From: a virus
Taxonomy: Duplodnaviria; Caudoviricetes
Length of the DNA: 64,000 nt
Reading direction: 5' to 3' (one strand)
IMG/VR virus record: IMGVR_UViG_3300032225_001145
Location: 1 to 64,000 of that record
The notes below the pieces were generated by a model. That model made no database searches. It saw only the letters and a program-made list of their open reading frames with translations, and was not told where the DNA came from. Of the stretch, positions 2,303 to 19,146 are shown in pieces (position 1 is the stretch's first letter; the number at the start of each line of letters is the position of its first letter). Both the position numbers and the translations under genes were made by a program.

Positions 2303-3103
2303 ATGAGTGACCATTATCAAACCCTGGGGGTTAAGCGTGATGCTAGTCCCGACGAAATTAAAAAGGCTTATCGAAAGCTAGCTAGCCAGCATCACCCCGA
2401 CAAAGGTGGTGATAAACATAAATTTCAAGAGATTGAACAAGCATATCGTACATTAAGCGATCCACAACAACGAGCTCAACACGATAATCCTATGCCACAA
2501 GGATTCAATTTTGAATTTCAAGGTGGCCCAGGTGGATTTGATCTTAATAACATTTTTAGTATGTTTGGAGCACAATTCCATCAGCAAGGATTCCATCCAC
2601 AACAACAACGACAAACACATACTCGCATGAGTTTGTGGATAACATTACAAGATGTGGCGCAAGGTGGAAAACGGCCTGTTAATGTTGGCACACAACAAGG
2701 CTCGATGACTATTGAAATTGAAATCCCATTAGGTATCGAAGACGGAGATAATGTACAATATTCTGGAATTGGGCCTGGCAACACCGACTTAATTGTAAAC
2801 TTTAGAATACACCAAAATCCAAAATGGCAGCGTAACGGGTTAACCTTAACTACCGATCATAGTATTAGTGTATGGGATTGTTTAGTTGGCGGTGAAACAA
2901 AAATTAAAGATATATTAGGCAACGAATATACCCTTTCTATCCCGCCATTATCACAACCGGGTAGTTTGCTTAGATTAAAAGGAAAAGGACTGGCTTCTCG
3001 TCAATCTCATCCAGGCGATTTATTAGTAAGACTACACACCAGAATGCCTAACAAAATTAGTCCCGAATTAATTGATCTTATCAAAGAAGAGCAAAAGAAG
3101 TAA
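2303..3103 (+). CDS. DnaJ/CbpA-type co-chaperone
   Basis: J-domain with HPD, G/F-rich linker, DnaJ C-terminal domain, no zinc finger. Confidence 0.92.
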   Translation: MSDHYQTLGVKRDASPDEIKKAYRKLASQHHPDKGGDKHKFQEIEQAYRTLSDPQQRAQHDNPMPQGFNFEFQGGPGGFDLNNIFSMFGAQFHQQGFHPQQQRQTHTRMSLWITLQDVAQGGKRPVNVGTQQGSMTIEIEIPLGIEDGDNVQYSGIGPGNTDLIVNFRIHQNPKWQRNGLTLTTDHSISVWDCLVGGETKIKDILGNEYTLSIPPLSQPGSLLRLKGKGLASRQSHPGDLLVRLHTRMPNKISPELIDLIKEEQKK

Positions 3104-3166: not shown

Positions 3167-5446
3167 ATGCAAAACAATAAAGAAATCGAACAGATCGTAG
3201 CTAATGCAGTTAAAATGGCAAAAGAAAAACAGCACGAGTATGTTTTAACCGAGCATGTTTTATTGGCATTAGTACGCCATGTTCCCTTCAACAAAGTACT
3301 TGAATCTTTTGGCTGCAATGTTAATTCGTTAGACAACGAATTAGATGCTTATATTAATAGCCTTGCTAGTCTTGTTACCAATAAAAAAGATTTTCAACCT
3401 AAAAAAACTAATGCCCTTGAACGTTGTTTTAATCGGGCGATGACACAGGTATTGTTTACCGGGCGTCGTAGTATGAATACTGGTGATTTATATCTAGCTA
3501 TGATGGCTGAAAATAATTCACACGCACACTATTTTTTATTAAAGTACGGCGTTAAGAAAAAAGAGTTTATGGAATATTGGCAGACACATTATAAGCATGA
3601 TGATGTTACTATTACTAGTTCGCAGGCCGACGAAATCTTAACTGAGTACTGTATAAATTTAACTAAATTGGCTGCCGAAGATCGTTTAGAGCCAATGATT
3701 GGCCGTAGTGAAGAACTAGATGAAATTATCACAGTTTTAGCTCGCAAATTTAAAGCTAATGTATTAATGGTTGGCGATCCAGGTGTAGGTAAGACAGCTA
3801 TAGCAGAAGGTCTCGCACAAGAAATTATGTTAAATCGTGTACCACAATTTTTAATGGGACACGAAGTATGGAGTTTAGAAGTTGGTAGTTTGTTAGCCGG
3901 TTCTAAATATCGTGGCGAATTTGAAGAAAAATTTAAACAGGTTATTGGCGCATTAGAAACTAAGAAAAATTGTATCTTGTTTATTGATGAGGCACATACT
4001 ATGAAGGGCGCCGGCGCCAGTACTCAAAGCACATTGGATTTTGCCAATATGTTAAAACCTGCTATTACTAAAGGCAATCTAAAAGTGGTAGCAAGTACTA
4101 CATGGGAAGAATTCTACGAGTCCTTTGAAAAGGATCGTGCGTTAATGCGTCGATTCCATCGTGTAGGTATTGACGAGCCAAGTCCAGAAGTTACAGAACA
4201 AATCCTTATTGGATTAAGTCCACGCTTGGAACAGTTCCATAATGTATTGATTGATACAGATGCTATCAAATCTGCTGTAGAATTAAGTGGTCGTTATATA
4301 CATGATCGCAAAAATCCAGATAAAAGTATTGACTTGTTAGACGGTGCTTGTGCTAAAGAGCGAGTTAAAGACATCGGCAATGTAACTATTAACAAAGAAA
4401 TGATCATGGCTCAGTTAAGTCGTGTCACTGAAGTTCCCATGGATAGATTACAAAACGAGCGCAGTTCCAATATCATGGAACTAGAAGGTAATATCAAACA
4501 AAAACTATATGGGCAGGATCAAGCTGTTGATTCAGTACTTGAGCGAGTTTATATTAACTTCTCTGGCATTGGCAACGATAATCGTCCTATTGCTAGTTTC
4601 TTGTTCCTTGGTCCAACAGGTACAGGTAAAACTGAACTTGCTAAATTATTAGCAGAAGGCCTTGACATGCAGTTATTAAAATATGACATGTCTGAGTATC
4701 AAGAAAAACATACAGTAAGTAGTTTGATTGGCGCTCCCCCAGGTTATGTAGGCTTTGAAGATGGCAATGTAGGCGGTGGTAAACTTATCAGTGATGTTAG
4801 CAAAAATCCGTATTCTATCTTATTGTTTGATGAGATTGAAAAAGCTCACCCCGATGTCATTAATATTATGCTACAAATGCTAGACGAAGCTCGCATTACC
4901 AGTGCTAATGGTAAGACAGTTAATCTTAAAAACACTATCATTATTATGACTAGTAATTTGGGTGCTCGCGACAATGAAAACAATAACATTGGTTTTGGTA
5001 AATCGTTAGAGAAAACTGGATCTGAAGATAAAGCAATGAAGGATTTCTTCAAACCAGAGCTACGCAATCGTATTGACCAAGTATGTAAGTTTAAGAAACT
5101 TGATACACTTGCTATCAAGAAAGTTGTACTTAAATTTGTTGATCAACTACAAGTTAGTCTTGTTGCTAAAAATATTAAACTTAACTTGGCTGAATCAGTT
5201 ATCGATATGTTGGCTGAAAAAGGATATGATCCTAAGATGGGTGCCCGTCCGCTAAATCGTAAGATCGACGAACTAATCCGCGTACCACTAAGTAAAAAGA
5301 TTTTATTTGAAAGATTATCTGACTGTACTATTAATGCTATCATGATTGATGATAAGATTGACTTCACAATCATACAACCAGCGCCCATGGCTTTGGTAAA
5401 TGACTCCGGTATTATTGTGCTAGATGGCGAATCTCCTACAGTTTAA
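3167..5446 (+). CDS. clpA: ATP-dependent Clp protease ATP-binding subunit, ClpA type
   Basis: Clp N-domain, two AAA modules (GDPGVGKT, GPTGTGKT), GAPPGYVG, IGF ClpP-docking loop, no ClpB middle domain. Confidence 0.9.
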   Translation: MQNNKEIEQIVANAVKMAKEKQHEYVLTEHVLLALVRHVPFNKVLESFGCNVNSLDNELDAYINSLASLVTNKKDFQPKKTNALERCFNRAMTQVLFTGRRSMNTGDLYLAMMAENNSHAHYFLLKYGVKKKEFMEYWQTHYKHDDVTITSSQADEILTEYCINLTKLAAEDRLEPMIGRSEELDEIITVLARKFKANVLMVGDPGVGKTAIAEGLAQEIMLNRVPQFLMGHEVWSLEVGSLLAGSKYRGEFEEKFKQVIGALETKKNCILFIDEAHTMKGAGASTQSTLDFANMLKPAITKGNLKVVASTTWEEFYESFEKDRALMRRFHRVGIDEPSPEVTEQILIGLSPRLEQFHNVLIDTDAIKSAVELSGRYIHDRKNPDKSIDLLDGACAKERVKDIGNVTINKEMIMAQLSRVTEVPMDRLQNERSSNIMELEGNIKQKLYGQDQAVDSVLERVYINFSGIGNDNRPIASFLFLGPTGTGKTELAKLLAEGLDMQLLKYDMSEYQEKHTVSSLIGAPPGYVGFEDGNVGGGKLISDVSKNPYSILLFDEIEKAHPDVINIMLQMLDEARITSANGKTVNLKNTIIIMTSNLGARDNENNNIGFGKSLEKTGSEDKAMKDFFKPELRNRIDQVCKFKKLDTLAIKKVVLKFVDQLQVSLVAKNIKLNLAESVIDMLAEKGYDPKMGARPLNRKIDELIRVPLSKKILFERLSDCTINAIMIDDKIDFTIIQPAPMALVNDSGIIVLDGESPTV

Positions 5447-6537: not shown

Positions 6538-7356
6538 ATGCGTACAGTTGTAATATATCCCGGAAGATTTCAACCAGGGCACAAAGGCCATAAGTCCAGT
6601 TACGACTATCTCGTTAAGAAATTTGGGGACGGAAATGTTTATGTAGCTACATCCGATGTAACTGCCCCGGTGACCAATCCCTTTAGTTTTTCTGATAAAG
6701 TTGAAATGCTTACTAAGTTAGGTATTCCTTCTGGTCGTATTGTCCAAGTACGCAATCCTTATCAAGCACAAGAAATCACCAAAGATATTCCGGATCCCGA
6801 AAACACAGCTCTTGTATTTGCTGTATCTGAAAAGGACATGGGCGAAACTCCTCGTTTTAAATTTGGCGTTAAAAAGAATGGCGAACCGAGTTATATGCAA
6901 CCATATCCTAAGGAAGGCAAGCTACAACCGTTGACCAAACACGCTTATGTAATGGTTACACCAACTACTATATTTAAAGTTCAGGGTAAAGATGCTAATT
7001 CTGCTAGTACAATACGCAAAATGTATACAGACGGCAATGCGAATGATCGTAAACAAATTTTACATGATTTATATGGCGAGGATGATCCAGCCTTACAACA
7101 ATTATTTGATAAAAAATTAGGTGTAGCACAAAAAGCTCGTGATTTTGTCATACAAGAACCTGCTATAGATGGCGATGTGATTGACCAACCCAAACCGGTA
7201 ATTCGCAACGAATCTAAGCAACACAGGGCAAAAATAGCAAAACTAATCGAGTCAACTGTTTTGGCAGAACGCACAGCCGCACATTGTTACAGAAGTTTTG
7301 AAGAAGATTTAATCCCTAATTACATAGACGAAAAATCAGGCAGAAAATTTTACTAG
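6538..7356 (+). CDS. cytidyltransferase-like (HxGH) nucleotidyltransferase
   Basis: YPGRFQPGHKGH and SASTIR motifs. Confidence 0.8.
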   Translation: MRTVVIYPGRFQPGHKGHKSSYDYLVKKFGDGNVYVATSDVTAPVTNPFSFSDKVEMLTKLGIPSGRIVQVRNPYQAQEITKDIPDPENTALVFAVSEKDMGETPRFKFGVKKNGEPSYMQPYPKEGKLQPLTKHAYVMVTPTTIFKVQGKDANSASTIRKMYTDGNANDRKQILHDLYGEDDPALQQLFDKKLGVAQKARDFVIQEPAIDGDVIDQPKPVIRNESKQHRAKIAKLIESTVLAERTAAHCYRSFEEDLIPNYIDEKSGRKFY

Positions 7357-8335: not shown

Positions 8336-8369
8336 GGCCGCTAGAGCAATCTAAGCGGCTTTTGTTTTT
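8336..8369 (+). terminator. rho-independent terminator
   Basis: GCCGCTAGA-GCAA-TCTAAGCGGC hairpin followed by T-rich tract. Confidence 0.75.
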
Positions 8370-8384
8370 CCGCTAAATATATTA

Positions 8385-10526
8385 ATGAACATTGAACAAT
8401 TAGAATCCTTCAATCTAGCGGATGCTGTAAAGTTTCATGACAACCTTAACCCGTTAATATGGGATAAAAGCGAACATTTACATCCTGAAATTAGAGATCA
8501 ACTATTAGAAATAGCCGCAGATTTTGGCGAGTTTCTTGGAGTGGACAATTTAAATTTAAAAGATATAACAATCTCAGGTAGCAATGCTGCTTTTTCATAC
8601 ACTCCACATTCTGACATAGATTTACATTTAATTGTAGACTTAGGTGACGAAGCACACAAAGACATATACCGCGAGTTGTTTGATGCTAAAAAGTTTATCT
8701 ATAACACGGAACATAAGATTACTATTAAAGGTATTCCAGTTGAGTTATATGTACAAGATGCCAATGAAGAACATCATAGTCAAGGAATTTACAGTATACT
8801 GAATAATGATTGGATTCAAATTCCTCGCCGTAAACAATCAGATATTGATGATGTAAGTGTGCGTAGCAAATATAAAGATTTAAGTAAGCGTATAAAAGAA
8901 GCTATCAAATCTAAATCACTAGAACAGATGACTAGTGTAATGGACAAGATAAAAGAAATGCGTGGAGCAGGACTGGCCAATCACGGCGAGTTTGGTCCAG
9001 AAAATTTAGCATTTAAATTGTTACGCAATAAAGGTGATTTGAAGAAATTACACAATGCTCGCAAACAGGCAAAGAGTGTTGAACTAAGTTTGAAAGAGCG
9101 CAAGCCACAACAACCAACTACATACGGGTTTGGTCCTGACTATATTGAAGAAGTTGGTATTACTCCAGATGGTACTAACCCAACTACTTCTGAATTTACC
9201 AACGAAGCGCAGTTAGATGAAGTAGGCGTTACTCCAGACGGTACTAATCCAACTACTTGTATGTTTACCAACGAATCCGACAATAATAAATCTATCATCA
9301 AAGATTTTGTTAATTTTTGTATCAATGAATTAGAATTACAAAAAGAAATCAATTTAAGATTACGCCGTGACCCACAATGGTCTGCCCGTAACAAAACATT
9401 TGGACGATATAACGATACTACCAATGAATTAGAAGTAGGTCTAGGTGGCCGTCATATCATGGACATACTTAGAACTATAGCACACGAGCTAGTACATCAA
9501 AAACAAAATGAAATGGCTCCAGTGCCAGATGATGCTGGCGAAGATGGTAGCCCATATGAGAATGAAGCCAATGCTCGAGCAGGTGTGTTAATGCGTAAGT
9601 ATGGTTCTGAACATCCAGAATTGTTTATGGGCAGTGAATCGCCCGAGTCTTCTAAATCATTAAAAGAATATATTTCCATGGGCTCGGACAAAAATTTCCA
9701 AGAAGCAGAACCTTATAAAAATTATAAGATATATGTACGCATAAAACCTTTTGGTAATACTGGAATATATACTGCTCATACAGAAATAGATCGCAAAGAA
9801 TTCAAAGGCCAAGGCAAAACACAAGAAGAAGCGATTCAAGCTGCTCGTGACAAAATTGATTTTGTATTAAATGCCCAAAAGAAAGTTACTGGCTCTAGTA
9901 CGATTGATTTTAATGTTAAATTTGCTACAGATTTATTGGCAGATCCTCGACAAACATTTTACGCTAAATTAGAAAATATTGACGGCGGGCCTAAATTAAT
10001 AATCGCTGGTCCAGATATTGTAGCAGATCCAGAATTATTGGCTGCCGGAGATTTTAAGAAAAGTTCGTTACGGACTCAAGTTGATGACGCAGGCAACACT
10101 ACTCCTTTACCGGGCATTCCGTTATCTGCTAAAAGTCTTAGGGCTGGTGAGTGGATAGCCAATGGTAGATATACCATAGGAAATGAAACTACGGATAGCG
10201 ATGGTAACCGGGTGTTTGATTTAACTTACCATAGCACAGCACATACTAAAAGTGATAAACTACGATTAACTCAACCAGCATTTACTTTAGGCACCAATCG
10301 TGAAATAAGTGAAGCTAGTGGCTATATACCTACAGCCGCACAAGCTCACGATCCACGCTTTGAAATGGCACTTACTGTAGACATTCGCCCAGGAGCATTA
10401 GGTAAGAATGCCAACAAGTTATTGCTAAACACAGATAGTCAAGGACACCCACAAGAATTACGCCCAGACGGCATTGTAAAAAGAATGATGGAAGAATTAG
10501 AATTATTTAAAAGGAATTATCAATGA
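8385..10526 (+). CDS. modular protein: Pol-beta-type nucleotidyltransferase, HExxH zincin-like domain and further modules
   Basis: GSNA..SDIDLH..VELYVQD; AHELVH..ENEANA; internal tandem repeat. Confidence 0.75.
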   Translation: MNIEQLESFNLADAVKFHDNLNPLIWDKSEHLHPEIRDQLLEIAADFGEFLGVDNLNLKDITISGSNAAFSYTPHSDIDLHLIVDLGDEAHKDIYRELFDAKKFIYNTEHKITIKGIPVELYVQDANEEHHSQGIYSILNNDWIQIPRRKQSDIDDVSVRSKYKDLSKRIKEAIKSKSLEQMTSVMDKIKEMRGAGLANHGEFGPENLAFKLLRNKGDLKKLHNARKQAKSVELSLKERKPQQPTTYGFGPDYIEEVGITPDGTNPTTSEFTNEAQLDEVGVTPDGTNPTTCMFTNESDNNKSIIKDFVNFCINELELQKEINLRLRRDPQWSARNKTFGRYNDTTNELEVGLGGRHIMDILRTIAHELVHQKQNEMAPVPDDAGEDGSPYENEANARAGVLMRKYGSEHPELFMGSESPESSKSLKEYISMGSDKNFQEAEPYKNYKIYVRIKPFGNTGIYTAHTEIDRKEFKGQGKTQEEAIQAARDKIDFVLNAQKKVTGSSTIDFNVKFATDLLADPRQTFYAKLENIDGGPKLIIAGPDIVADPELLAAGDFKKSSLRTQVDDAGNTTPLPGIPLSAKSLRAGEWIANGRYTIGNETTDSDGNRVFDLTYHSTAHTKSDKLRLTQPAFTLGTNREISEASGYIPTAAQAHDPRFEMALTVDIRPGALGKNANKLLLNTDSQGHPQELRPDGIVKRMMEELELFKRNYQ
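9147..9275 (+). repeat. tandem duplication of a 20-codon unit (xEVGxTPDGTNPTTxxFTNE)
   Basis: Copies at 9147-9206 and 9216-9275, similar at DNA and protein level. Confidence 0.85.
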
Positions 10527-11683
10527 AAGCTCTTGAATTTATTTTTGAATCTGCACAAACAACCTTAGGCGGATTCAAAGTTACACCTTTACACATCGAA
10601 GATCAAGATGTAGATGAGGCCATTGGATTAAATGCTCCACATCGCCGGATGAGTCGCGATGAATTACAAGGCTATGCTAATCGTATCAAGACTGGCACCA
10701 AAACTAAAAAAGATAGATTTGCTCCTATTATACATGGTAGCAATATCAAGGCAATTACCAAAGATGACAACGGCACAGAATGGGACTTAGATGATTTAGC
10801 TCGCCAGATCACTACTCGTCCTCGTTCATTGTTAGGCACTAATGCTAAGATGAGTAAGAGTGCTACCGAGGGTGAAATTGTTTATGATTTAACATTGCCA
10901 GCATTGAGTGGTGTTGTGGTTGACGAAGAAACTAGTGACTTTGTAGAAATTACTACTTGTCCAGGCGCAGGCGGTTGTCAGCTATTCTGTTATGCTCGTA
11001 AAGGTGGCTATGTAATGTTCCCTGCTAGCTCTATGTCAGCCGCACAAGCATTAAACTTCTTAGTTAATGATCCGCCTGGCTACATGGCCATGGTTAATCG
11101 AGAGATACAAGGTCTCAAAGGCAAAACAGACAAACATGGAATTAGATTAGTTGTGCGTTGGCATGACGCGGGCGACTTCTTTTCCAAAGAATATCTAGAT
11201 TTAGCATTCAATGTTGCTCGCACTAATCCAGATGTAAAATTCTATGCTTATACTAAGATGGCCGATGTTGCTACTTCTGCCAATAAACCTGCTAATTTTA
11301 TCGTCAATTTTAGTTCAGGAAGTAAGCGTGGTGAAGAAAAGAAAATTGAATTACACAAAGCCCAAGGCAACGCAGTTAAAGATGCTGTAACATTACCCAA
11401 AGATATGTTCCGCACATTGTTTGTCACAGATCCTAAAGGCAAATATGTTAAAGACGAAAAAGGCCGCACACAAGTTAAAAGTCCCGAAGCATGGGAAGAA
11501 TTTAAAAAAACATTGGCTGCCAAATATAAAATTGATCCAAATTCAATTATCACATACGATCAGATGTTAACAATTCCCGAAGGTCCACAACCTAAATGGA
11601 ATGTAGTTATATTCCCGGCTGGACACGGAGACCGTGCTGCTAATAGATTGGATGTAATCAACAGTTTCTTAATGTTCCACTAA
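10523..11683 (+). CDS. GP88-family phage protein (Cys-cluster, radical-SAM-like)
   Basis: TCPGAGGCQLFCYA, RWHDAGDF, FYAYTK. Confidence 0.75.
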   Translation: MKALEFIFESAQTTLGGFKVTPLHIEDQDVDEAIGLNAPHRRMSRDELQGYANRIKTGTKTKKDRFAPIIHGSNIKAITKDDNGTEWDLDDLARQITTRPRSLLGTNAKMSKSATEGEIVYDLTLPALSGVVVDEETSDFVEITTCPGAGGCQLFCYARKGGYVMFPASSMSAAQALNFLVNDPPGYMAMVNREIQGLKGKTDKHGIRLVVRWHDAGDFFSKEYLDLAFNVARTNPDVKFYAYTKMADVATSANKPANFIVNFSSGSKRGEEKKIELHKAQGNAVKDAVTLPKDMFRTLFVTDPKGKYVKDEKGRTQVKSPEAWEEFKKTLAAKYKIDPNSIITYDQMLTIPEGPQPKWNVVIFPAGHGDRAANRLDVINSFLMFH

Positions 11684-11684
11684 A

Positions 11685-13322
11685 ATGATTTTAAACGATT
11701 TTACCCAACCTAAACTAAAGTTTAGTCGCGAAAAGCTAGACGCAGTTCTTGTCGAGCTTTGCGGTATGGTCATCGAAGGACAACAGGACAATCCAGATTT
11801 TTATGGTATGGTAGCCGCTGCGGTATTAGATCCACGGGGAAGATTAGTTACTGGAGTAAATTATCTATATGGTAATTCAAGAATTCACGCCGAACGAGCA
11901 GCCATAGACAAGTATGAGGAAGAGTATGGAGAATTGCCAAAAGGTAGTATTGTAATTACTACATTAAGCCCATGCTGTGAAGATACTGGCGATAATCGAT
12001 ATGGAGTTAGCTGTACGGATTTATTAAATCAAAAACATATCAAATTAGCCTACTGCGGGTACAGTGATCCGTCACAAGATAATACTCACGAAAATTTTAC
12101 AATTATTATTACAGAAAATAGTAAGATTAAATTGTTATGTAAAAAATTAGCTGATACATTTTTAAAAAAAAAATTAGCAGAAAATACAAATAAACAAATA
12201 TTATCCTACATCAAAAAGATACACCCAAAAGGTGAGTTTAAGATTGATCAATCAGTAACTGATCATCCTGTATGGGAGTTGACCACTGTACCTATCAGCG
12301 GTTTACATCTTGAAAAAGATGGCAGTCCTTATGGACAAATTAGTTATGTTGACTATGATCATGTAGCCGATATTACAGCACAAGATATAAAAAATAAACC
12401 TATTGTTGTAGACAACGCTGGATGGGTGATTGATGGCAATCATCGTGCTGTAGCTGCACGTGAAATGGGTATGAAATATATACCAGCCTATGTTCCAGAT
12501 TTATCTGCAGAAGAAGATCAAGAAACTTACGATCAACATATGGCTCGCATTAAAAAACAAATAAACGAAGCTCGCATACCATATGCGATAGAAGAGTTTC
12601 TTGACAGTTTAAACCCTGATGATGTAGGTGTTGAAGAGTTTGGCCGTTACCGCGTACACTACGAAGGGTTTAGCGATGATTGTCAAAGTAGTAGCGATTA
12701 TCGCAAGAATCCTGAAGCAGTATATGATCAAGTATTCCAAGATTTTATTGCTCGCGAGGGCGGGGCCAGGCCGATAGTTTCAGACATGATTGGTGACGAG
12801 GACTATCCAATACTTTATAGTATATTTAAAATTAAACAACAGCCAGTCAATGAAACGGCATCGTTTAATCAATGCTACGCCACCGCTTGTAAACTATATG
12901 ACAAAGCTGACGCTGAAAATTTAAATCCTATGCTATTACAAGTAGCTGGATACAAAGGTAACGGAAGTACTGCTAACACTAATTGGTTAGAAATACCACC
13001 ACGCTTGTGGCAACACTATGTTACAGTAGTTGGCGACATGGTATTAGATCCTACTGCTAAACAGTTTGGGTCAGACAAGGCAACCAAATATCCACGTAGT
13101 CAGTTGGATCACGATTGGAATAAGCAGTATCAAATTAAACCAAAGGAAGTTACAGAAAACTTTGCTGATGGTAAAGGGCCAGGTCGTCCAGGCGATAGCC
13201 AGCGTCATGGTATTCCTAAGGGTGCTACAATGGCCGAATTAGAAAAAGCAAGCCACGCTAAAGGTCGAAAAGGACAGCTAGCTCGTTGGCAACTAAATAT
13301 GCGGAGAGGACATAAAGAATGA
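11685..13322 (+). CDS. modular protein: Zn-dependent deaminase, ParB/Srx-like and papain-like modules
   Basis: HAE..TLSPC..C; IDGNHR; NQC..HY..LDPTAKQF. Confidence 0.7.
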   Translation: MILNDFTQPKLKFSREKLDAVLVELCGMVIEGQQDNPDFYGMVAAAVLDPRGRLVTGVNYLYGNSRIHAERAAIDKYEEEYGELPKGSIVITTLSPCCEDTGDNRYGVSCTDLLNQKHIKLAYCGYSDPSQDNTHENFTIIITENSKIKLLCKKLADTFLKKKLAENTNKQILSYIKKIHPKGEFKIDQSVTDHPVWELTTVPISGLHLEKDGSPYGQISYVDYDHVADITAQDIKNKPIVVDNAGWVIDGNHRAVAAREMGMKYIPAYVPDLSAEEDQETYDQHMARIKKQINEARIPYAIEEFLDSLNPDDVGVEEFGRYRVHYEGFSDDCQSSSDYRKNPEAVYDQVFQDFIAREGGARPIVSDMIGDEDYPILYSIFKIKQQPVNETASFNQCYATACKLYDKADAENLNPMLLQVAGYKGNGSTANTNWLEIPPRLWQHYVTVVGDMVLDPTAKQFGSDKATKYPRSQLDHDWNKQYQIKPKEVTENFADGKGPGRPGDSQRHGIPKGATMAELEKASHAKGRKGQLARWQLNMRRGHKE

Positions 13323-14047
13323 AAATTAATCAAATCATCACTGAAGAGTGGAGTCAAAAATACAAGAAAAGTATTAACTGCCGCCACCCAAAAGGGTTCA
13401 GTCAAAAAGCTCATTGTGCTGGCAAGAAAAAACACAACGAAGATATTACTATGGAAGAGGTGTGTCCAGACTGTGGTATGTGCCAAACACATGGCAATCT
13501 TAATGAAATTAAAAAAGGTGCCAAAGATAGCAACGGATACACTAAGTGCTGGCCAGGCAAGCATGCCGAAGGTACTAAGAAGGGAAAGAATGGCGGCCTA
13601 GTACGTAACTGTGTGCCAAACGAAAGCGAAGAACTAGATGAAGAGTTTGATCTTATTGAATCTATTATTAATAATCTTGCTAATCGTAATCAAGTAGATC
13701 CAGAAGCAATTTGGGAAGATTTAGAATCACTTACTAACGACGAACTATATGTATTTGCTGCCACGATGCCAATTATGGAAGATTGGCAAAAAGCTAATAA
13801 AAAGGATAAAACAGATGGCATGAGTCAAAAGGCTGTGAACTCGTATCGCCGTGAACATCCTGGCTCAAAATTAAAGACTGCCGTGACTACCAAACCTAGT
13901 AAGTTAAAGAAAGGTAGTAAAGCTAGCAAGCGTCGTAAAAGCTATTGTAGTCGTAGTAAGGGTCAAATGAAGATGCACAGCATTAGTTGTGCTAAGACTC
14001 CCGACAAGGCTATCTGTAAAGCCCGTCGTCGTTGGAACTGTGAATGA
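13319..14047 (+). CDS. Cys/Lys-rich modular phage protein
   Basis: KCWPG..VRNCV module, basic C-terminus ending RRWNCE. Confidence 0.65.
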   Translation: MKINQIITEEWSQKYKKSINCRHPKGFSQKAHCAGKKKHNEDITMEEVCPDCGMCQTHGNLNEIKKGAKDSNGYTKCWPGKHAEGTKKGKNGGLVRNCVPNESEELDEEFDLIESIINNLANRNQVDPEAIWEDLESLTNDELYVFAATMPIMEDWQKANKKDKTDGMSQKAVNSYRREHPGSKLKTAVTTKPSKLKKGSKASKRRKSYCSRSKGQMKMHSISCAKTPDKAICKARRRWNCE

Positions 14048-14988
14048 GATTTAAAGAATTTATTGTCGAATATCGCCACCCTAATGAACAAAAAGTGCAT
14101 AGGGCAGGATTAGATTTGGAATCTATTATAGTAGGCAGAGATTTTCAAATAACTGCTTCAAGTCATGGTCGCGAAATGGGCCGTGTACTATTCCACATTA
14201 ACGACAATACTTTAATTCCTGATGATTTATGGGTTGAAGAACAGTATCGCGGACAGGGTATCGCAGCTGTAATGTACGATTGGGCCAAAGAACTAGGCTA
14301 TCGTGTAGTACGCAGTGATTCTCAAACAGATGATGGCAAACATTTTTGGGATAAGAATCGTGGAGAAGCAGGTCAAGTATGGGAAGCCGAGCTGGCCGAA
14401 ATAGCCCGTATACCAAAAAGCGAATTAGCTGGGTGGGGCGATAAAGATACAATAGAGCCACAGCAGGAACCTAAGGGTTCTAAGCCTTTACCCGGCGGTA
14501 GCGGATATAAGTATCATGTAAATCGCAAAGGCAGCGATTTTATAGAAATTACCTTATACGACAAAGGTCAAATTATTGCTGAATTGGATTTAGAAGAATT
14601 AGGAGCTCCTATTCCACTTTGGCGAGTTGAAACTGTTGTAGCTATTCCTGAATATCAAGGTCGAGGCTTAGGTATGTCATTGTATGGAATAGCTTTAAGT
14701 ATCTTAAAATTAACTCTAGTAGCAGGCGAAACACAAACTCAACACGGAGCCCGTCAATGGCTTAAACTTAGTCAAATACCTGGGGTAGAAGTCATGGGCA
14801 TGAAAACTGCTCCTAAAAACAATTTTAAACAGGGACCCGATAATATAGTGTTATGGCAAGGGCCTGAAATGATTACTTACACATTCCCTATTACACAGGG
14901 ATCTAAATCAATGAAATCTGCCCAGCGCGGCGTTGGAATATATAATTCAGCCGGCGCAACCATGATTGCTAAATGGACCGGCAAGTAA
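14044..14988 (+). CDS. tandem GNAT acetyltransferase
   Basis: Two acetyl-CoA motif A copies: YRGQGIA and YQGRGLG. Confidence 0.8.
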   Translation: MRFKEFIVEYRHPNEQKVHRAGLDLESIIVGRDFQITASSHGREMGRVLFHINDNTLIPDDLWVEEQYRGQGIAAVMYDWAKELGYRVVRSDSQTDDGKHFWDKNRGEAGQVWEAELAEIARIPKSELAGWGDKDTIEPQQEPKGSKPLPGGSGYKYHVNRKGSDFIEITLYDKGQIIAELDLEELGAPIPLWRVETVVAIPEYQGRGLGMSLYGIALSILKLTLVAGETQTQHGARQWLKLSQIPGVEVMGMKTAPKNNFKQGPDNIVLWQGPEMITYTFPITQGSKSMKSAQRGVGIYNSAGATMIAKWTGK

Positions 14989-15007
14989 AAATCCGCTAAA
15001 TACTTTA

Positions 15008-15199
15008 ATGCGATTATATGAAATTGTAGGTTTACAAGAAACAACTGTGAGTGGTAGTATTGCTACTGTAGCTATGCCCTTGGGCCCAGTACAGCGTAGA
15101 ATACCACCAGATAGCCTATTTCAAGGTAAATATACTACCGACGCAAATCCGACGCCAAATACGCCGGACTGGATGAAAAAATTTAAAGGGAAGAAGTAA
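15008..15199 (+). CDS. hypothetical protein
   Basis: Start moved to ATG 15008, 5 nt after TAAATA at 14997-15002. Confidence 0.6.
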   Translation: MRLYEIVGLQETTVSGSIATVAMPLGPVQRRIPPDSLFQGKYTTDANPTPNTPDWMKKFKGKK

Positions 15200-15639
15200 T
15201 GTTAGCTGATTTAATGAAAATCCTATTAGCAAGTGACTTTAGTTACTATCTAAAAGCACACTTCTTTCATTGGAATGTAGAGGGCAAAGACTTCTATCAA
15301 TATCATAAATTCCTACAAAAAGTCTACGAAGATGCTTATGAAGCTGTAGATACTATTGCTGAAAATATTCGTACATTAAACGAGTATGCTCCAGGTAGTT
15401 TAATCCGCTATCACGAGTTATCCCGTATTAAAGACCAAACCAAAGTGCCTAGAGCACAACTCATGCTGGAGGAATTACTAGCTGATTCCCACATTATGAT
15501 TGCACTTCTTAATGAATGTTTTGCCGCTGCCGAAGCAGAGAACAAGCAAGACATCGCAAATTTTATCGCTGAAAGATTAACTGCCACTAATAAGTTTATC
15601 TGGATGTTACAAAGTTTTTTAAGAGAGTCTAGAGCATAA
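15199..15639 (+). CDS. dps: Dps/ferritin-like DNA-protecting protein
   Basis: HWNVEG..F..H..Y..D..AE..R and terminal WML. Confidence 0.9.
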   Translation: MLADLMKILLASDFSYYLKAHFFHWNVEGKDFYQYHKFLQKVYEDAYEAVDTIAENIRTLNEYAPGSLIRYHELSRIKDQTKVPRAQLMLEELLADSHIMIALLNECFAAAEAENKQDIANFIAERLTATNKFIWMLQSFLRESRA

Positions 15640-16601
15640 TGGATCATGAGTTTTTAAGCATCGTAGAAAAATTAGCTATCCTTGAAGGGCGCATTGCTCC
15701 AAAGGAAAGTAAAGTCATGGTTGAAACTTCAACCAAGCAAAAGAAGCCGGCTCTTTTTAATAATCTTAAAAAAGATGAATCTGCTATGCCCATGGTAGGT
15801 GGAGTAGAGTTTGCCGAAGATAAAATGGAAGAAGATGTGTTGGGTAGAGTCAAAGCCTCGTTAGCTGACTACTTAAAGTCTGCTGAGGAAAATTTAAAAC
15901 ACGATACTGATCTTATTGCTAAGAAAAAACAAGATTTAGATTTAAAGAAAAAAGAATTAAAAGATTTAACACTCCAAGCCAAAAAAAATGTTGACGAAGC
16001 CATTCCAATGACATTAGAAGATCATCAAAAACTTGAAGTAGGTGATCGTATTTGCGTTACTGGCCCAAATCACTATCAAGGCGAGTTCGGTGACATTGTT
16101 GATTTTGGTCGCGGTAGTGATTTTATTATCGTAGACATTGACGGTGAGATAGTTAGCATGCACGCTAGTGATGTTGAATATCACGATGATCAAGAAGATT
16201 GGGATGAAGATGATGGCGTTATGTTCGAGCCACCAAAAAATAAAAATCACAGTATATATAAAAACGAAGGCGAGCTAGAAGAAGATCCAAATCAGACTCC
16301 AGCAGGCGGCGAAGGTAAATCTACATTATCAGATCCTACCTACGCAGAAAGTGCGACAGCTCCAGTTAAAACAGTTAATGTTCCTACAGAAGAAGTAGGA
16401 CTTAGTGGCGGCGGCGGAAGTGTGTTAGTTGAAATCCACGGCGACGAGCGCGATGGTTTTTGTATCAAGAGAGCTGGTAAAGAATTACCAACTCGCTTTA
16501 AGAGTTTAGAAGAATGTGAAATCGCATTAGAAATGTATATGGCTCGTGCTAAAGCTAAACAAGCTGCTGAACAGTCTGCTGATTATATAGAAGAAAAATA
16601 A
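15639..16601 (+). CDS. acidic modular protein with KOW/SH3-like segment
   Basis: LEVGDRICVTGP..GEFGDI. Confidence 0.6.
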   Translation: MDHEFLSIVEKLAILEGRIAPKESKVMVETSTKQKKPALFNNLKKDESAMPMVGGVEFAEDKMEEDVLGRVKASLADYLKSAEENLKHDTDLIAKKKQDLDLKKKELKDLTLQAKKNVDEAIPMTLEDHQKLEVGDRICVTGPNHYQGEFGDIVDFGRGSDFIIVDIDGEIVSMHASDVEYHDDQEDWDEDDGVMFEPPKNKNHSIYKNEGELEEDPNQTPAGGEGKSTLSDPTYAESATAPVKTVNVPTEEVGLSGGGGSVLVEIHGDERDGFCIKRAGKELPTRFKSLEECEIALEMYMARAKAKQAAEQSADYIEEK

Positions 16602-16602
16602 T

Positions 16603-19146
16603 ATGAATTTATTTGATTTATTTGAAGGAGCCATCGACGACCTTGAAGCTCGTCGTATTGAAGATTTAGAAGCAAAGATGGACGACTTAATAGCTCGTGC
16701 CAAAGAAGCAACTGACCCTAATGTTATTGCGGCGTTGCGCCATCAGTTTGCAATAGCAGTAGCCGAGCGTAATAGTTATTACAAATTAAATGTAGAAGAA
16801 GACACAGATACAAATTATACCTATACAGTTTTCATTGATGGTACTAAAGAAGGTACCTACGGTAGTAAAGAAGAAGCCAAAGCTGTAGTTAAGCGCAAAA
16901 AAGAACAAGCACCAGGTAGAGTGTATACTATTAGACCAAAGAGTCGCACTAGTATGTCTAGTATTAAACGATTCCAGCGCAATAGAGATCGTGAAATTGA
17001 AGAAGATGATTTAGTTACAGCCGAAGGTTATGCTACTACAATAGGTCCTGATATGGCTCCACTAGATCCAGCAACGCAATGGAAAATTAAAGTTAGGCAA
17101 TTAATTGCTGATTACATTAAAAATCCACAAGGTTTATATAATATAGCTAAACGCAACGGACCTAATAGCCCCGAAGCATTTGCCTATAATCAAATTATGC
17201 ATCCTACTGGTAAAATTGCTTTACCACCCGACGCTGTTACATTCGAAGGTTATGTGCCTCTTGACAAGTATAGTCCAACCGCTGTTTGTCTATCTGGCAA
17301 GCCTGTTAAAAAGTTTGACTACTATAAAGACGCTGAAAACTTTTACAAAAACTGGAAACAAAAATTGTATCGCGAAGGCAACACAGAGAAGGCAGACAAG
17401 ATTACCTTGATGCCGTTGAATCTTGATGAAGCCGCCAATCTAGCACAACAAGCTGCTATTGCTATTGCTAAGAAAAAAGCTCATACAAAACCTAAACAAA
17501 TGGACGAAGCTAGCGATCGTGTAGATCCTATTCTAATAAAAGCATTGAACCGTATGCCCGACGGATTAAACAGTCACGGCGAAGTGCTCAATGCCGCATA
17601 TGATGCTTATGCTATGGAGTTAGGTCGTATGCGGATGAAAAGCGAGTATGGCACTACCAATGCGTATATCCCACAACTAATGAATCTGTACAAAGAAAAA
17701 TACAGCCTAGATATAAAAGAAGATACAGGTAGTTGGATTGCCTTTGATCCTGCAACTAAACAAATTAAAAAACGTTTTAAAACACACACAGCTGGCAAGA
17801 GTTATGCTAAGGTACACAATTTAGGCTTTGCTAGTAGTGAATACTACTTTGACAATGTTAAAGAAAAAGATATAGCAGAAGATGAACAAATTGATGGCAT
17901 GGCTCGCGGCGAAGTAAAAGAAATTATTCGTAATGCTAGCACCATTCAACAGGCATTGGATCAAGGTATCAGTTTAGACGGTTGGATGTATAGTTATGTT
18001 ACTACAAGTAACGACCACTTAAACAGCGTGGCAGAACAAATTGGTAATCCCGACATCGAAGAAGCAAGTATGACATGGGCCGCGCACAAATCGACAGGGC
18101 CAAAGTTTAGTGGCTATCTAAAAGGTACAGACTCTGCCCCTACTGAATTTGGCAACAAGAGTGTTGGCGGGATGGAAGAAGGAATTGACGGTAACATGAC
18201 TGTACGTTCTAATCCATTATCACAACCTTTAAGAAAACGCAATTATGTTGCCAAGAATGCTCAAAGTTCTGGAGCTGGTAAACACAATAATAATTTAAAA
18301 GCGGCGGCCGCTCGCGGTCAAGTTAAACATAAAGCCAAGGCATTTGAATTAGATGAGATGACTGACGACGAAGGTGCTAAGTTACGCAAAGACGCTGAAG
18401 CTTACGCTATTAAACAAATGACAGCTCCTAAAAAAGTTGAGCCAAAAAAATCATTCATGCAACAAGTTGGCGACAAACAAATTGGCATGGTCAAAGGTGC
18501 TTGGAAGGGTTTAACTGGGCAACTCAAAGAATCTGATAATTTTATGACTTGGGCAGTTCGTAATGGCTACAACTTTACCAAAGATCCAGCTATTTACGAA
18601 TCAGCTAGAAAAGAATATAAAGCTCTAGTAGAGTCTAAAAAAAAGACATTAAAAAATACTAATCCTTGTTGGAAAGGTTACAAGCCAGTTGGTACAAAAG
18701 AAAAGAATGGTAACACCGTTCCTAATTGTGTACCTGTAGAAGAAGATTGCGGTCCTATTGCGCCGCACCAAACTTACTATGGTGCTATGGATGAAACTAA
18801 AGGCTTAGGCAAACGAGTTCGAGTAGTTAGTGGTCCAGCAGCCGGACAAACTGGCACTATTGGCGAAGTACGCAATGGCGCATATCAAGGCGCTCCAAAA
18901 TATTACACAGTAGACTTAGACAACGGCGGCCATGTACAAGTTCGCAAAGAAGCATTAAAATTAATAAAAGACGACCTAAAAGAAAGTCTAAAAGACGGCG
19001 AATATTTTATTTGGACAGTTTACTTTGATAACGGTACTAGTAAACGTATAAAAGTTAAATCAGATGAATTTGATCCATATGCGTATTATGCTAGAAAAAA
19101 TCAAGTAGTAGTGAATGTTGATTATAATTGGGAAATACATCAATAA
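16603..19146 (+). CDS. large modular protein of many short domains
   Basis: PCWKGY..VPNCVP module, KOW-like GKRVRVVSGP..GQTGTI, many Glu-ending linkers. Confidence 0.65.
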   Translation: MNLFDLFEGAIDDLEARRIEDLEAKMDDLIARAKEATDPNVIAALRHQFAIAVAERNSYYKLNVEEDTDTNYTYTVFIDGTKEGTYGSKEEAKAVVKRKKEQAPGRVYTIRPKSRTSMSSIKRFQRNRDREIEEDDLVTAEGYATTIGPDMAPLDPATQWKIKVRQLIADYIKNPQGLYNIAKRNGPNSPEAFAYNQIMHPTGKIALPPDAVTFEGYVPLDKYSPTAVCLSGKPVKKFDYYKDAENFYKNWKQKLYREGNTEKADKITLMPLNLDEAANLAQQAAIAIAKKKAHTKPKQMDEASDRVDPILIKALNRMPDGLNSHGEVLNAAYDAYAMELGRMRMKSEYGTTNAYIPQLMNLYKEKYSLDIKEDTGSWIAFDPATKQIKKRFKTHTAGKSYAKVHNLGFASSEYYFDNVKEKDIAEDEQIDGMARGEVKEIIRNASTIQQALDQGISLDGWMYSYVTTSNDHLNSVAEQIGNPDIEEASMTWAAHKSTGPKFSGYLKGTDSAPTEFGNKSVGGMEEGIDGNMTVRSNPLSQPLRKRNYVAKNAQSSGAGKHNNNLKAAAARGQVKHKAKAFELDEMTDDEGAKLRKDAEAYAIKQMTAPKKVEPKKSFMQQVGDKQIGMVKGAWKGLTGQLKESDNFMTWAVRNGYNFTKDPAIYESARKEYKALVESKKKTLKNTNPCWKGYKPVGTKEKNGNTVPNCVPVEEDCGPIAPHQTYYGAMDETKGLGKRVRVVSGPAAGQTGTIGEVRNGAYQGAPKYYTVDLDNGGHVQVRKEALKLIKDDLKESLKDGEYFIWTVYFDNGTSKRIKVKSDEFDPYAYYARKNQVVVNVDYNWEIHQ

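Follow-up and report, generated by a model that had tools for sequence, protein, structure and literature searches.

Are nine adjacent genes of an uncultured tailed phage a store of proteins that are packed into the phage head and cut apart there? The question is raised by positions 8385-19146 (the block) of a 64-kb window, which is the first 64,000 nucleotides of the 124,971-bp IMG/VR record IMGVR_UViG_3300032225_001145 (G000; CheckV completeness 36%). An initial annotation of this DNA read the block as capsid-packaged polyproteins with a shared N-terminal tag and with glutamate-ending linkers between unrelated modules. The follow-up analysis finds a short leader on five of the nine proteins and, in related phages, the same position for the end of a leader and for an internal joint. 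Judged from these sequences, the block proteins are probably precursors that are loaded into the head and cut by its protease, and there is good, if incomplete, reason to see the block as a single operon that encodes capsid cargo of a giant T4-related myovirus.

Leaders, joints, and their interchange

The block consists of nine plus-strand genes whose stops and starts overlap or abut, and no terminator-like site was found on the plus strand within it. Here and below, a slash marks the end of a leader or a joint; aa, nt, and pI stand for amino acids, nucleotides, and isoelectric point.

p1, 8385-10526, plus strand: 713 aa, no leader; matches phrog_36119 (E 1.4e-47)
p2, 10523-11683, plus strand: 386 aa; leader MKALEFIFE/ (nt 10523-10549), acidic spacer to DVDE/32, GP88 domain
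p3, 11685-13322, plus strand: 545 aa, no leader, five modules
p4, 13319-14047, plus strand: 242 aa; leader MKINQIITE/ (nt 13319-13345), Cys-rich module, acidic module, and the basic module given below
p5, 14044-14988, plus strand: 314 aa; leader MRFKEFIVE/ (nt 14044-14070), GNAT at 10-119, ELAE/119, GNAT-like at 120-314
p6, 15008-15199, plus strand: 63 aa; leader MRLYEIVGLQE/, then a 52-aa basic peptide, pI 10.1
p7, 15199-15639, plus strand: 146 aa, Dps/ferritin-like (PF00210, E 6e-20), no leader
p8, 15639-16601, plus strand: 320 aa; N-terminus MDHEFLSIVE/KLAILE/G with two [IL]xE motifs; acidic C-terminal part
p9, 16603-19146, plus strand: 847 aa; leader MNLFDLFE/ (nt 16603-16626), about 13 modules of 17-142 aa

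Two IMG/VR scans gave 27 related loci, with 115 open reading frame (ORF) matches that reduce to 73 distinct proteins. One of them, the 235,812-bp record G001, is rated 100% complete and has the same block at identities of up to 83%. The initial annotation had called for a comparison of module order in such relatives, and it shows that the block is syntenic in the 27 loci, while the modules come and go.

The leader is 8-11 residues long, ends in hydrophobic-x-Glu, and stands on proteins that are otherwise unrelated: p2 (MKALEFIFE/S), p4 (MKINQIITE/E), p5 (MRFKEFIVE/Y), p6 (MRLYEIVGLQE/T), and p9 (MNLFDLFE/G). Seven similar N-termini had been proposed. All are present and these five fit one leader, whereas MNIEQLES of p1 and MILNDF of p3 do not.

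The strongest result is that a module lying inside a protein here can stand at the start of its own gene in relatives, with the last Glu of the leader at the position of the joint Glu. The pairs are as follows.

MRFFE/IARIPK in a relative: ELAE/IARIPK, internal in p5
MILQDLFE/NKSFNQCY in a relative: PVNE/TASFNQCY, internal in p3
MKIKELLVE/NKQ in a relative: KLAE/NTNKQ, internal in p3
MKLVEIIAE/AANPAQ in a relative: GVEE/, KVNE/, ELFE/, ATDE/, and SQNE/ before the same module, internal
MKINQIITE/EWSQKYK in leader form: SVEE/DWSKKYK and GVAE/EWSKKYK, internal

The second half of p5 is a gene of its own in loci L005-7, L010, and L012, with the start MRFFE/IARIPK or MRFYE/IARIPV, and p3 modules 167-295 and 391-491 head separate leader-bearing genes in L012 and L008. 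Relatives place the leader on further modules as well. As predicted from these genes, N-terminal leaders and internal joints are interchangeable between relatives.

The same rule is seen when single modules are followed through their surroundings. Across seven module types, 37 different upstream contexts were counted, of which 8 are leaders and 29 internal, and the residue directly before the module (P1) is Glu in 37 of 37. The third residue before it (P3) is I, L, V, M, or F in 21 of the 29 internal contexts, and over all 45 tabulated contexts (5 double-counted) it is L in 16, V in 9, I in 8, T in 5, M in 2, F in 2, A in 2, and Q in 1. The deaminase of p3 has eight different continuations, all of which begin behind [LI]xE (LAE, LNE, ITE, INE, LSE twice, LDE, LNE). 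Moreover, the p9 modules AANxAQ (277-302) and DEQIDGMA (427-487) are found behind many kinds of upstream sequence, each with E as its last residue. Because the joint tripeptides differ (LAE, INE, LSE, VTE, LNE), it is a protein pattern that is conserved and not DNA microhomology.

All eight boundary tripeptides quoted by the initial annotation were found in place:

p3: LAE166, INE295, VNE390, VTE491
p9: LDE276, MDE302, LKE643, LKE794
p1: ISE643

Its expectation that such motifs are enriched at domain boundaries was borne out. Breakpoints were taken as clustered internal ends of BLAST alignments, and a site was counted within 4 residues. By this measure 28 of the 45 breakpoint clusters lie near [ILVMF]xE, compared with 11.1 ± 2.8 under the null and a maximum of 21 in 5000 shuffles; the share of p9 is 13 of 18. 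Control motifs show no excess at the 45 breakpoints, with [ILVMF]xD at 10 (8.3 expected), xK at 5 (8.4 expected), xQ at 5, xS at 3, xN at 9, and non-hydrophobic-xE at 24 (20.3 expected).

A leader matrix was trained on 26 leaders of relatives, with this window and G001 excluded. It places p2, p9, p5, p4, and p6 as the top 5 of the 146 ORFs of the full record, and a score above 7 is reached by 5 of 9 ORFs in the block and 0 of 137 elsewhere (Fisher P 2.4e-7). Orthologues of four of the leader proteins are in the training set, and thus only the p5 leader is an independent match. A crude regular expression for the leader finds 3 of 9 in the block and 3 of 137 elsewhere (P 0.003).

Comparison with phage T4 and the head protease

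In the T4 record, the internal proteins IPIII and IPII start with MKTYQEFIAE/A, gp24 with MAKINELLRE/S, and gp22 with MLKEQLIAE/A, while gp21 has LLIE/T and gp23 has FLTE/A at the end of its propeptide. The EFIxE core of the p2 and p5 leaders is identical to that of IPII/IPIII. The other leaders end in IITE, GLQE, and DLFE, and the motif of T4 gp21 is I/L-x-E. Likewise, the Leu/Ile/Val-x-Glu joints have the P3/P1 pattern of gp21 cuts, which extracts of a review place in Alt at ITE-6 and LTE-619 and in gp21 at LIE-9. According to extracts of the review literature, ten N-terminal residues of IPIII are enough for targeting to the head; within this capsid-targeting sequence (CTS), residues 4 and 7 serve targeting and residues 8 and 10 serve processing, and Asp in position 10 prevents processing in T4. 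The CTS may be the way in which T4-like phages load varied proteins. In addition, the basic internal proteins of T4 are described in such extracts as contacting DNA, and IPI* and Alt as being ejected with the DNA into the host. In its predicted proteins, the locus has the sequence features of the T4 internal-protein system. It differs from T4 in that the cargo, as predicted from the genes, comes in chains that join 2 to about 13 modules and include several enzymes, with cut motifs inside the chain, that the joints double as cassette-exchange points, and that the leader of 8-11 residues is one residue shorter before the EFIxE core.

A protease of the gp21 family (PF03420, Peptidase_S77) is encoded by G001 (E 5.6e-33), G002 (3.3e-29), and Sinorhizobium phage Phosso (1.3e-27), that is, by three of five related records; the other two are fragments. 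Genes resembling those of gp22 and gp23 are also present in G001, whose capsid protein reads QLNE/T at the position of FLTE/A in T4 gp23.

One module has a counterpart in purified virions. The C-terminus of S-CREM2 ORF137 shares 69% identity with the DUF6321 module of p4, and extracts of the source report this protein from virions purified on CsCl (4 unique peptides, 4.1% coverage; Table 3, PMC10665884). In this cyanomyovirus protein, encoded between terS and terL (S-CREM2 ORF137, B23 gp266, P-TIM68 AIR93437), the DUF6321 module also stands behind xxE (SMNE/, SIVE/, TTNE/), and cyanophage B23 gp266 has the same CW...NCVP motif as p4, followed by VEE/. In contrast to p4, the gene lies in the packaging/structural cluster and lacks the EFIxE leader, and only one module is shared.

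Proposed mechanism

With T4-CTS-like leaders and joints at a gp21-type motif, the proteins are probably precursors packed into the head. The leader would dock each precursor onto the scaffolding core of the prohead, as the T4 CTS does, and a gp21-family protease would then remove the leader and cut the joints. These cuts would set free small basic peptides and separate NTase-like (nucleotidyltransferase-like), zincin, deaminase, ParB-like, two GNAT, and GP88 proteins inside the head. The products would exit together with the DNA and become active in the next infected cell, as is the case for IPI* and Alt of T4. An Alt-like role as C-terminal propeptide is a guess for the constant modules at the end of p1 (after EISE/) and of p3 (after EVTE/). 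A broader reading is somewhat doubtful: the prohead-protease motif would be both a cut site and an in-frame splice point, so that modules could be moved, fused, or equipped with a leader, and the operon would load a changing injected cargo in which the leaderless p1 and p3 are held by their C-terminal propeptides.

Alternative explanations

Several observations weigh against reading the block as head-loaded, protease-cut cargo. p1, p3, and p7 have no leader. No site lies close to 17 of the 45 breakpoint clusters; imprecise alignment ends account for some of these, as p9 633/634 and 650 straddle LKE643 and p3 300 lies 5 residues from INE295. P3 is T, A, or Q in 8 of the 29 internal contexts (TDE, QNE, and, in 6 of 9 contexts of one module, T or A). 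The density of [ILVMF]xE in the block, at 24.2 compared with 15.6 per 1000 aa, is paralleled by that of Glu (75.8 compared with 51.9), and as this overall Glu richness explains it, the density alone is uninformative. When applied to G001, the leader matrix scores only block proteins high, and the protease of this genome (MKLIKEINE/T) ranks 13 of 349 and its scaffold-like protein 21 of 349. A PF03420 search of the window's own 36%-complete record gave no match, but this is uninformative, because the record is a fragment, in which head genes were not found either, and the control genomes gave no match. The neighbors of the block are metabolic and replication genes and not head genes (by Pfam and PHROG, a cytidylyltransferase-like gene, phrog_1574, an FMN reductase, a DNA-binding protein, and a DNA polymerase). 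Structural (tail/head) genes, here and in G001, have ATAAATA about 27-30 nt upstream together with AGGAG. The block, in contrast, begins behind CTAAATA at -12 and lacks a Shine-Dalgarno sequence there, and its late expression is thus unproven. Finally, the AlphaFold2 (AF2) models, run on p3 and on p1 1-440, are both poor (mean pLDDT 47.5 and 51). Some of these points would suit cytoplasmic proteins that never enter the capsid, with an N-terminus that is another signal (translation start, localization, or turnover) and with joints that are acidic flexible linkers tolerating recombination: the metabolic and replication neighbors, the promoter-like motif unlike that of structural genes, the Glu richness of the whole block, and the leaderless p1, p3, and p7. 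Such an explanation is nevertheless unlikely, as the breakpoint enrichment is specific to hydrophobic-x-E and absent for xD, xK, and non-hydrophobic-xE, the differing joint tripeptides speak for a protein pattern and not for DNA microhomology, and the leader core is identical to a tag experimentally shown to load T4 heads. Distance from the head genes is no exception in T4, where ipII and ipIII also lie away from the head cluster.

Among described systems, the polyvalent proteins of mobile elements (Iyer et al. 2017) come close, and extracts of the article (PMC5512222) describe unrelated conflict-type domains in one polypeptide that are predicted to travel with DNA, and draw the analogy with viral polyproteins. 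The block proteins could then be delivered and act whole, or be cut by their embedded zincin, and the xxE motifs would be zincin sites or linkers. At least two unrelated effector-type domains are indeed found per polypeptide in p3 (deaminase and ParB-like), p5 (two GNAT-type), and p1, in which an NTase-like module with its motif is joined to a zincin whose model matches the Wss1, SPRTN, and minigluzincin folds. No relative lacks this zincin, which occurs either in fused form or encoded by a gene of its own (L014, L017, L019). The domain set of metallopeptidase (MPTase), Pol-beta NTase, GNAT, and ParB is that of the polyvalent list, and processing by the MPTase is proposed in the extracts. Even so, this explanation appears quite unlikely, because the joints follow the gp21 rule of hydrophobic P3 and Glu at P1 and coincide with the end of a T4-CTS-like leader, and a gp21-family protease is present in relatives. 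The block also does not lie next to late/structural genes, as the phage type of polyvalent protein does. The extracts differ further in that they mention no CTS and no joints for a prohead protease and propose that the embedded MPTase releases the domains, and in that they place the Pol-beta NTase only in proteins of conjugative elements, with paucity in some lineages; here an NTase-like module is encoded by a T4-type phage with gp21-type motifs. It is also conceivable that the proteins are packaged and cut, and that the fragments serve within the head, as parts of the core or scaffold or as counter-ions of the DNA, and not in the next host. Small size and basic charge are common among the fragments (p6 with pI 10.1, the p3 tail with 11.0, DUF6321 with 10.5, several p9 modules with 9-10), which in this resemble the DNA-contacting internal proteins of T4. 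This looks very unlikely in view of the intact catalytic motifs of the deaminase (HAE/PC...C, with the slash separating motifs), the ParB-like module (DGNHR), the zincin (HExxH), and both GNATs (Q/RxxGxG/A), which are unexpected for packing material. With regard to other jumbo phages, extracts on phiKZ, 201phi2-1, and SPN3US (S80 protease) describe many head-internal proteins that are cut after Glu at several sites and targeted by propeptides. However, P3 is small in those phages (AXE in SPN3US, SXE in phiKZ) and the propeptides often exceed 100 residues, whereas 33 of the 45 contexts here (5 double-counted) have L, V, or I at P3 and 2 have A, and the leaders of 8-11 residues have the T4 pattern; neither small P3 residues nor long propeptides are the rule in the block. 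The literature searched holds no description of CTS-led, protease-jointed polyproteins.

Composition of the individual proteins

p1: Five segments are distinguished in this protein.

Residues 1-238, nt 8385-9098, plus strand: Pol-beta NTase-like module, from motif, sub-threshold Pfam, and Atlas evidence
Residues 257-302, window 9153-9290, plus strand: two tandem units of about 23 aa, each directly after xxE
Residues 280-428, nt 9222-9668, plus strand: zincin module, from HExxH and fold matches
Residues 441-643, nt 9705-10313, plus strand: middle module, unassigned
Residues 644-713, nt 10314-10523, plus strand: constant C-terminal module after EISE/

The NTase-like assignment comes from a G-S...DxD motif, a sub-threshold match to NTP_transf_2 (E 0.0032), and the nearest Atlas clusters, which carry PF01909. 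The modeled region of about 293-415 matches the folds of ERAP1 (Z 8.4), lugdulysin (8.2), Wss1 (8.1), and SPRTN (7.7), which are middling Z scores for an AF2 model with a mean pLDDT of 51; the predicted model also resembles the minigluzincin fold. In relatives, both ends of p1 are retained, and the middle modules are lost or swapped. The tandem units, VGITPDGTNPTTSEFTNEAQLDE and VGVTPDGTNPTTCMFTNES..., look like a duplicated mini-cassette. The AF2 models leave out the NTase core, much of p3 273-398, and p3 407-545, and their low-confidence stretches at p3 162-196, p1 234-299, and p1 415-440 contain proposed cuts (p3 166; p1 238-279 and 428-440) and separate parts that are modeled better. PDB sequence searches with p1 and p2 gave no match.

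p2: The GP88 domain matches PF17338 (E 4.9e-35), and an Atlas search with it gave no usable lead to function. The p2 proteins of relatives have about 55 extra aa inserted at the junction at residue 33. The initial annotation had counted GP88 among the enzymes released, but GP88 is not a demonstrated enzyme.

p3: The five modules are all on the plus strand.

Residues 1-166, plus strand: zinc deaminase module ending in LAE, PF00383 (cytidine/dCMP deaminase), E 1.1e-7
Residues 167-295, plus strand: ParB/Srx-like module ending in INE, with the DGNHR motif, a ParB-like PHROG match (1.7e-6), and a sub-threshold Pfam match
Residues 296-390, plus strand: module ending in VNE, unassigned
Residues 391-491, plus strand: module ending in VTE, unassigned
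Residues 492-545, plus strand: basic constant tail after EVTE/, pI 11.0

The only PDB match of p3 is the RibD deaminase 2hxv (E 9.7e-4). In four relatives, p3 consists of the deaminase and the tail only (218-222 aa).

p4: Nine PHROG families match this protein, in which two features are placed as follows, one of them shared with p9.

Residues 155-242 of p4, plus strand: basic DUF6321 module after PIME/, PF19846 (E 1.4e-9), pI 10.5
nt 13547-13618 (p4) and nt 18667-18735 (p9), plus strand: CW...NCVP motif

The repeated Cys motif reads CW.G(Y/K)...G.K.K.G..V(P/R)NCVP in p4 and p9 and is followed by an acidic joint. A tblastn match to it lies under the annotated head maturation protease gene of Haloarcula virus HSTV-1 (49% over 44 aa, E 5e-4).

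p5 and p6: The first GNAT of p5 matches Acetyltransf_7 (E 1.1e-7); an NCBIfam scan gave only one GNAT match and Dps matches, all under the cut-off. The listed ORF of p6 begins with TTG at 14966, and the ATG at 15008 was taken, as in relatives, whose p6 proteins start with MKLFEIIGLKE, MRLHEFVNLQE, or MKLYEIVGLKE.

p7 and p8: The Dps models of NCBIfam match p7 below their cut-offs, its leader score is low, and its membership of the cargo set is uncertain. The place of p7 within the operon is kept in relatives, with 58-92% identity. The N-terminus of p8 is conserved across relatives and has a leader score of 3.5 (rank 9 of 146). Profile searches gave no family match for p8, which is possibly a cargo or core protein.

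p9: The xxE joints of this protein are at residues 66, 134, 276, 302, 373, 426, 487, 585, 643, 714, 731, and 794. Many of its modules are basic, and the protein is rebuilt in every relative. Among cultured phages, tblastn with p9 and p4 gave matches to small modules only.

Operon layout and expression signals

The upstream edge of the block and the CTAAATA motif are placed as follows.

8337-8359, plus strand: hairpin, followed by a T-run at 8360-8369
8373-8379, plus strand: CTAAATA, 12 nt 5' of the p1 ATG
Further CTAAATA sites: 13293-13299 in the window; before the genes at 6538, 42151, 42940, 53362, 56771, and 57926 (minus strand); 75964 in the record

The hairpin, T-run, and CTAAATA at 8337-8379 are likely the end of the upstream unit and a promoter-like start of the block. 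CTAAATA stands 12-14 nt before the ATG, with no Shine-Dalgarno sequence, upstream of about ten genes, and in G001 it shows a 16.5-fold enrichment over the 30 nt that precede gene starts (12 sites, with 0.73 expected). CTAAATA and ATAAATA with AGGAG may be two promoter classes. The T4 late promoter TATAAATA was considered and set aside, as its 5 matches compared with 12.4 expected are no enrichment. The cytidylyltransferase-like gene at 6538-7356, just upstream of the block, also has CTAAATA at -12. In extracts of the S-CREM2 study, the cytidylyltransferase ORF154 is a virion-associated protein (PMC10665884).

The source record and its lineage

The family-B DNA polymerase of the record is 50.5% identical to that of Phosso, 47.4% to that of Agrobacterium phage Atu_ph07, and 43.5% to those of 121Q/Rak2-like coliphages. 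Beyond the window, the record encodes tail and baseplate genes. From this polymerase kinship and the presence of tail and baseplate genes without head genes, the record is, on sequence grounds, a fragment of a giant T4-related myovirus. A megablast of the block against cultured phages gave no match.

At 125 kb and 36% completeness, the record implies a genome of about 350 kb, compared with 236 kb for the complete G001; either genome sizes vary widely within the lineage or one of the completeness estimates is off. The tail/baseplate region contains a single ORF of 5,277 aa (record 89156-104989, minus strand). In the window, a J-domain-like protein (2303-3103) adjoins a 759-aa ClpA/B-like ATPase (3167-5446; phrog_4871, E 1.3e-233), and the syntenic place in Phosso also has a Clp-family ATPase. 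Phosso was examined as a syntenic counterpart of the block and rejected, as its interval between the Clp ATPase and the DNA polymerase encodes collagen-like and fiber-like proteins and no homologues. The interval includes one small CTS-like protein of 237 aa (L001 18570-19283, annotated as hypothetical protein 216) that starts with MKTTKDIIFE/T. It lies directly upstream of the DNA-binding protein and the DNA polymerase, which is the relative position of the block here.

Implications

If the block is cargo of the head, a nine-residue tag and a three-residue joint would predict from sequence which proteins of giant uncultured T4-type phages are packed into the head and delivered with the DNA, and the motif of the head protease would be the seam along which this cargo is shuffled. 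Two ideas that have been described separately, the T4 CTS and the polyvalent proteins of mobile elements, would thereby be linked. The deaminase, the ParB-like module, the GNATs, the NTase-zincin, and GP88 are named candidates for injected host-takeover or anti-defense factors. On the broader reading, such proteins would be injected before gene expression, and the cargo and first-strike anti-defense proteins of uncultured T4-type phages could become readable from sequence.

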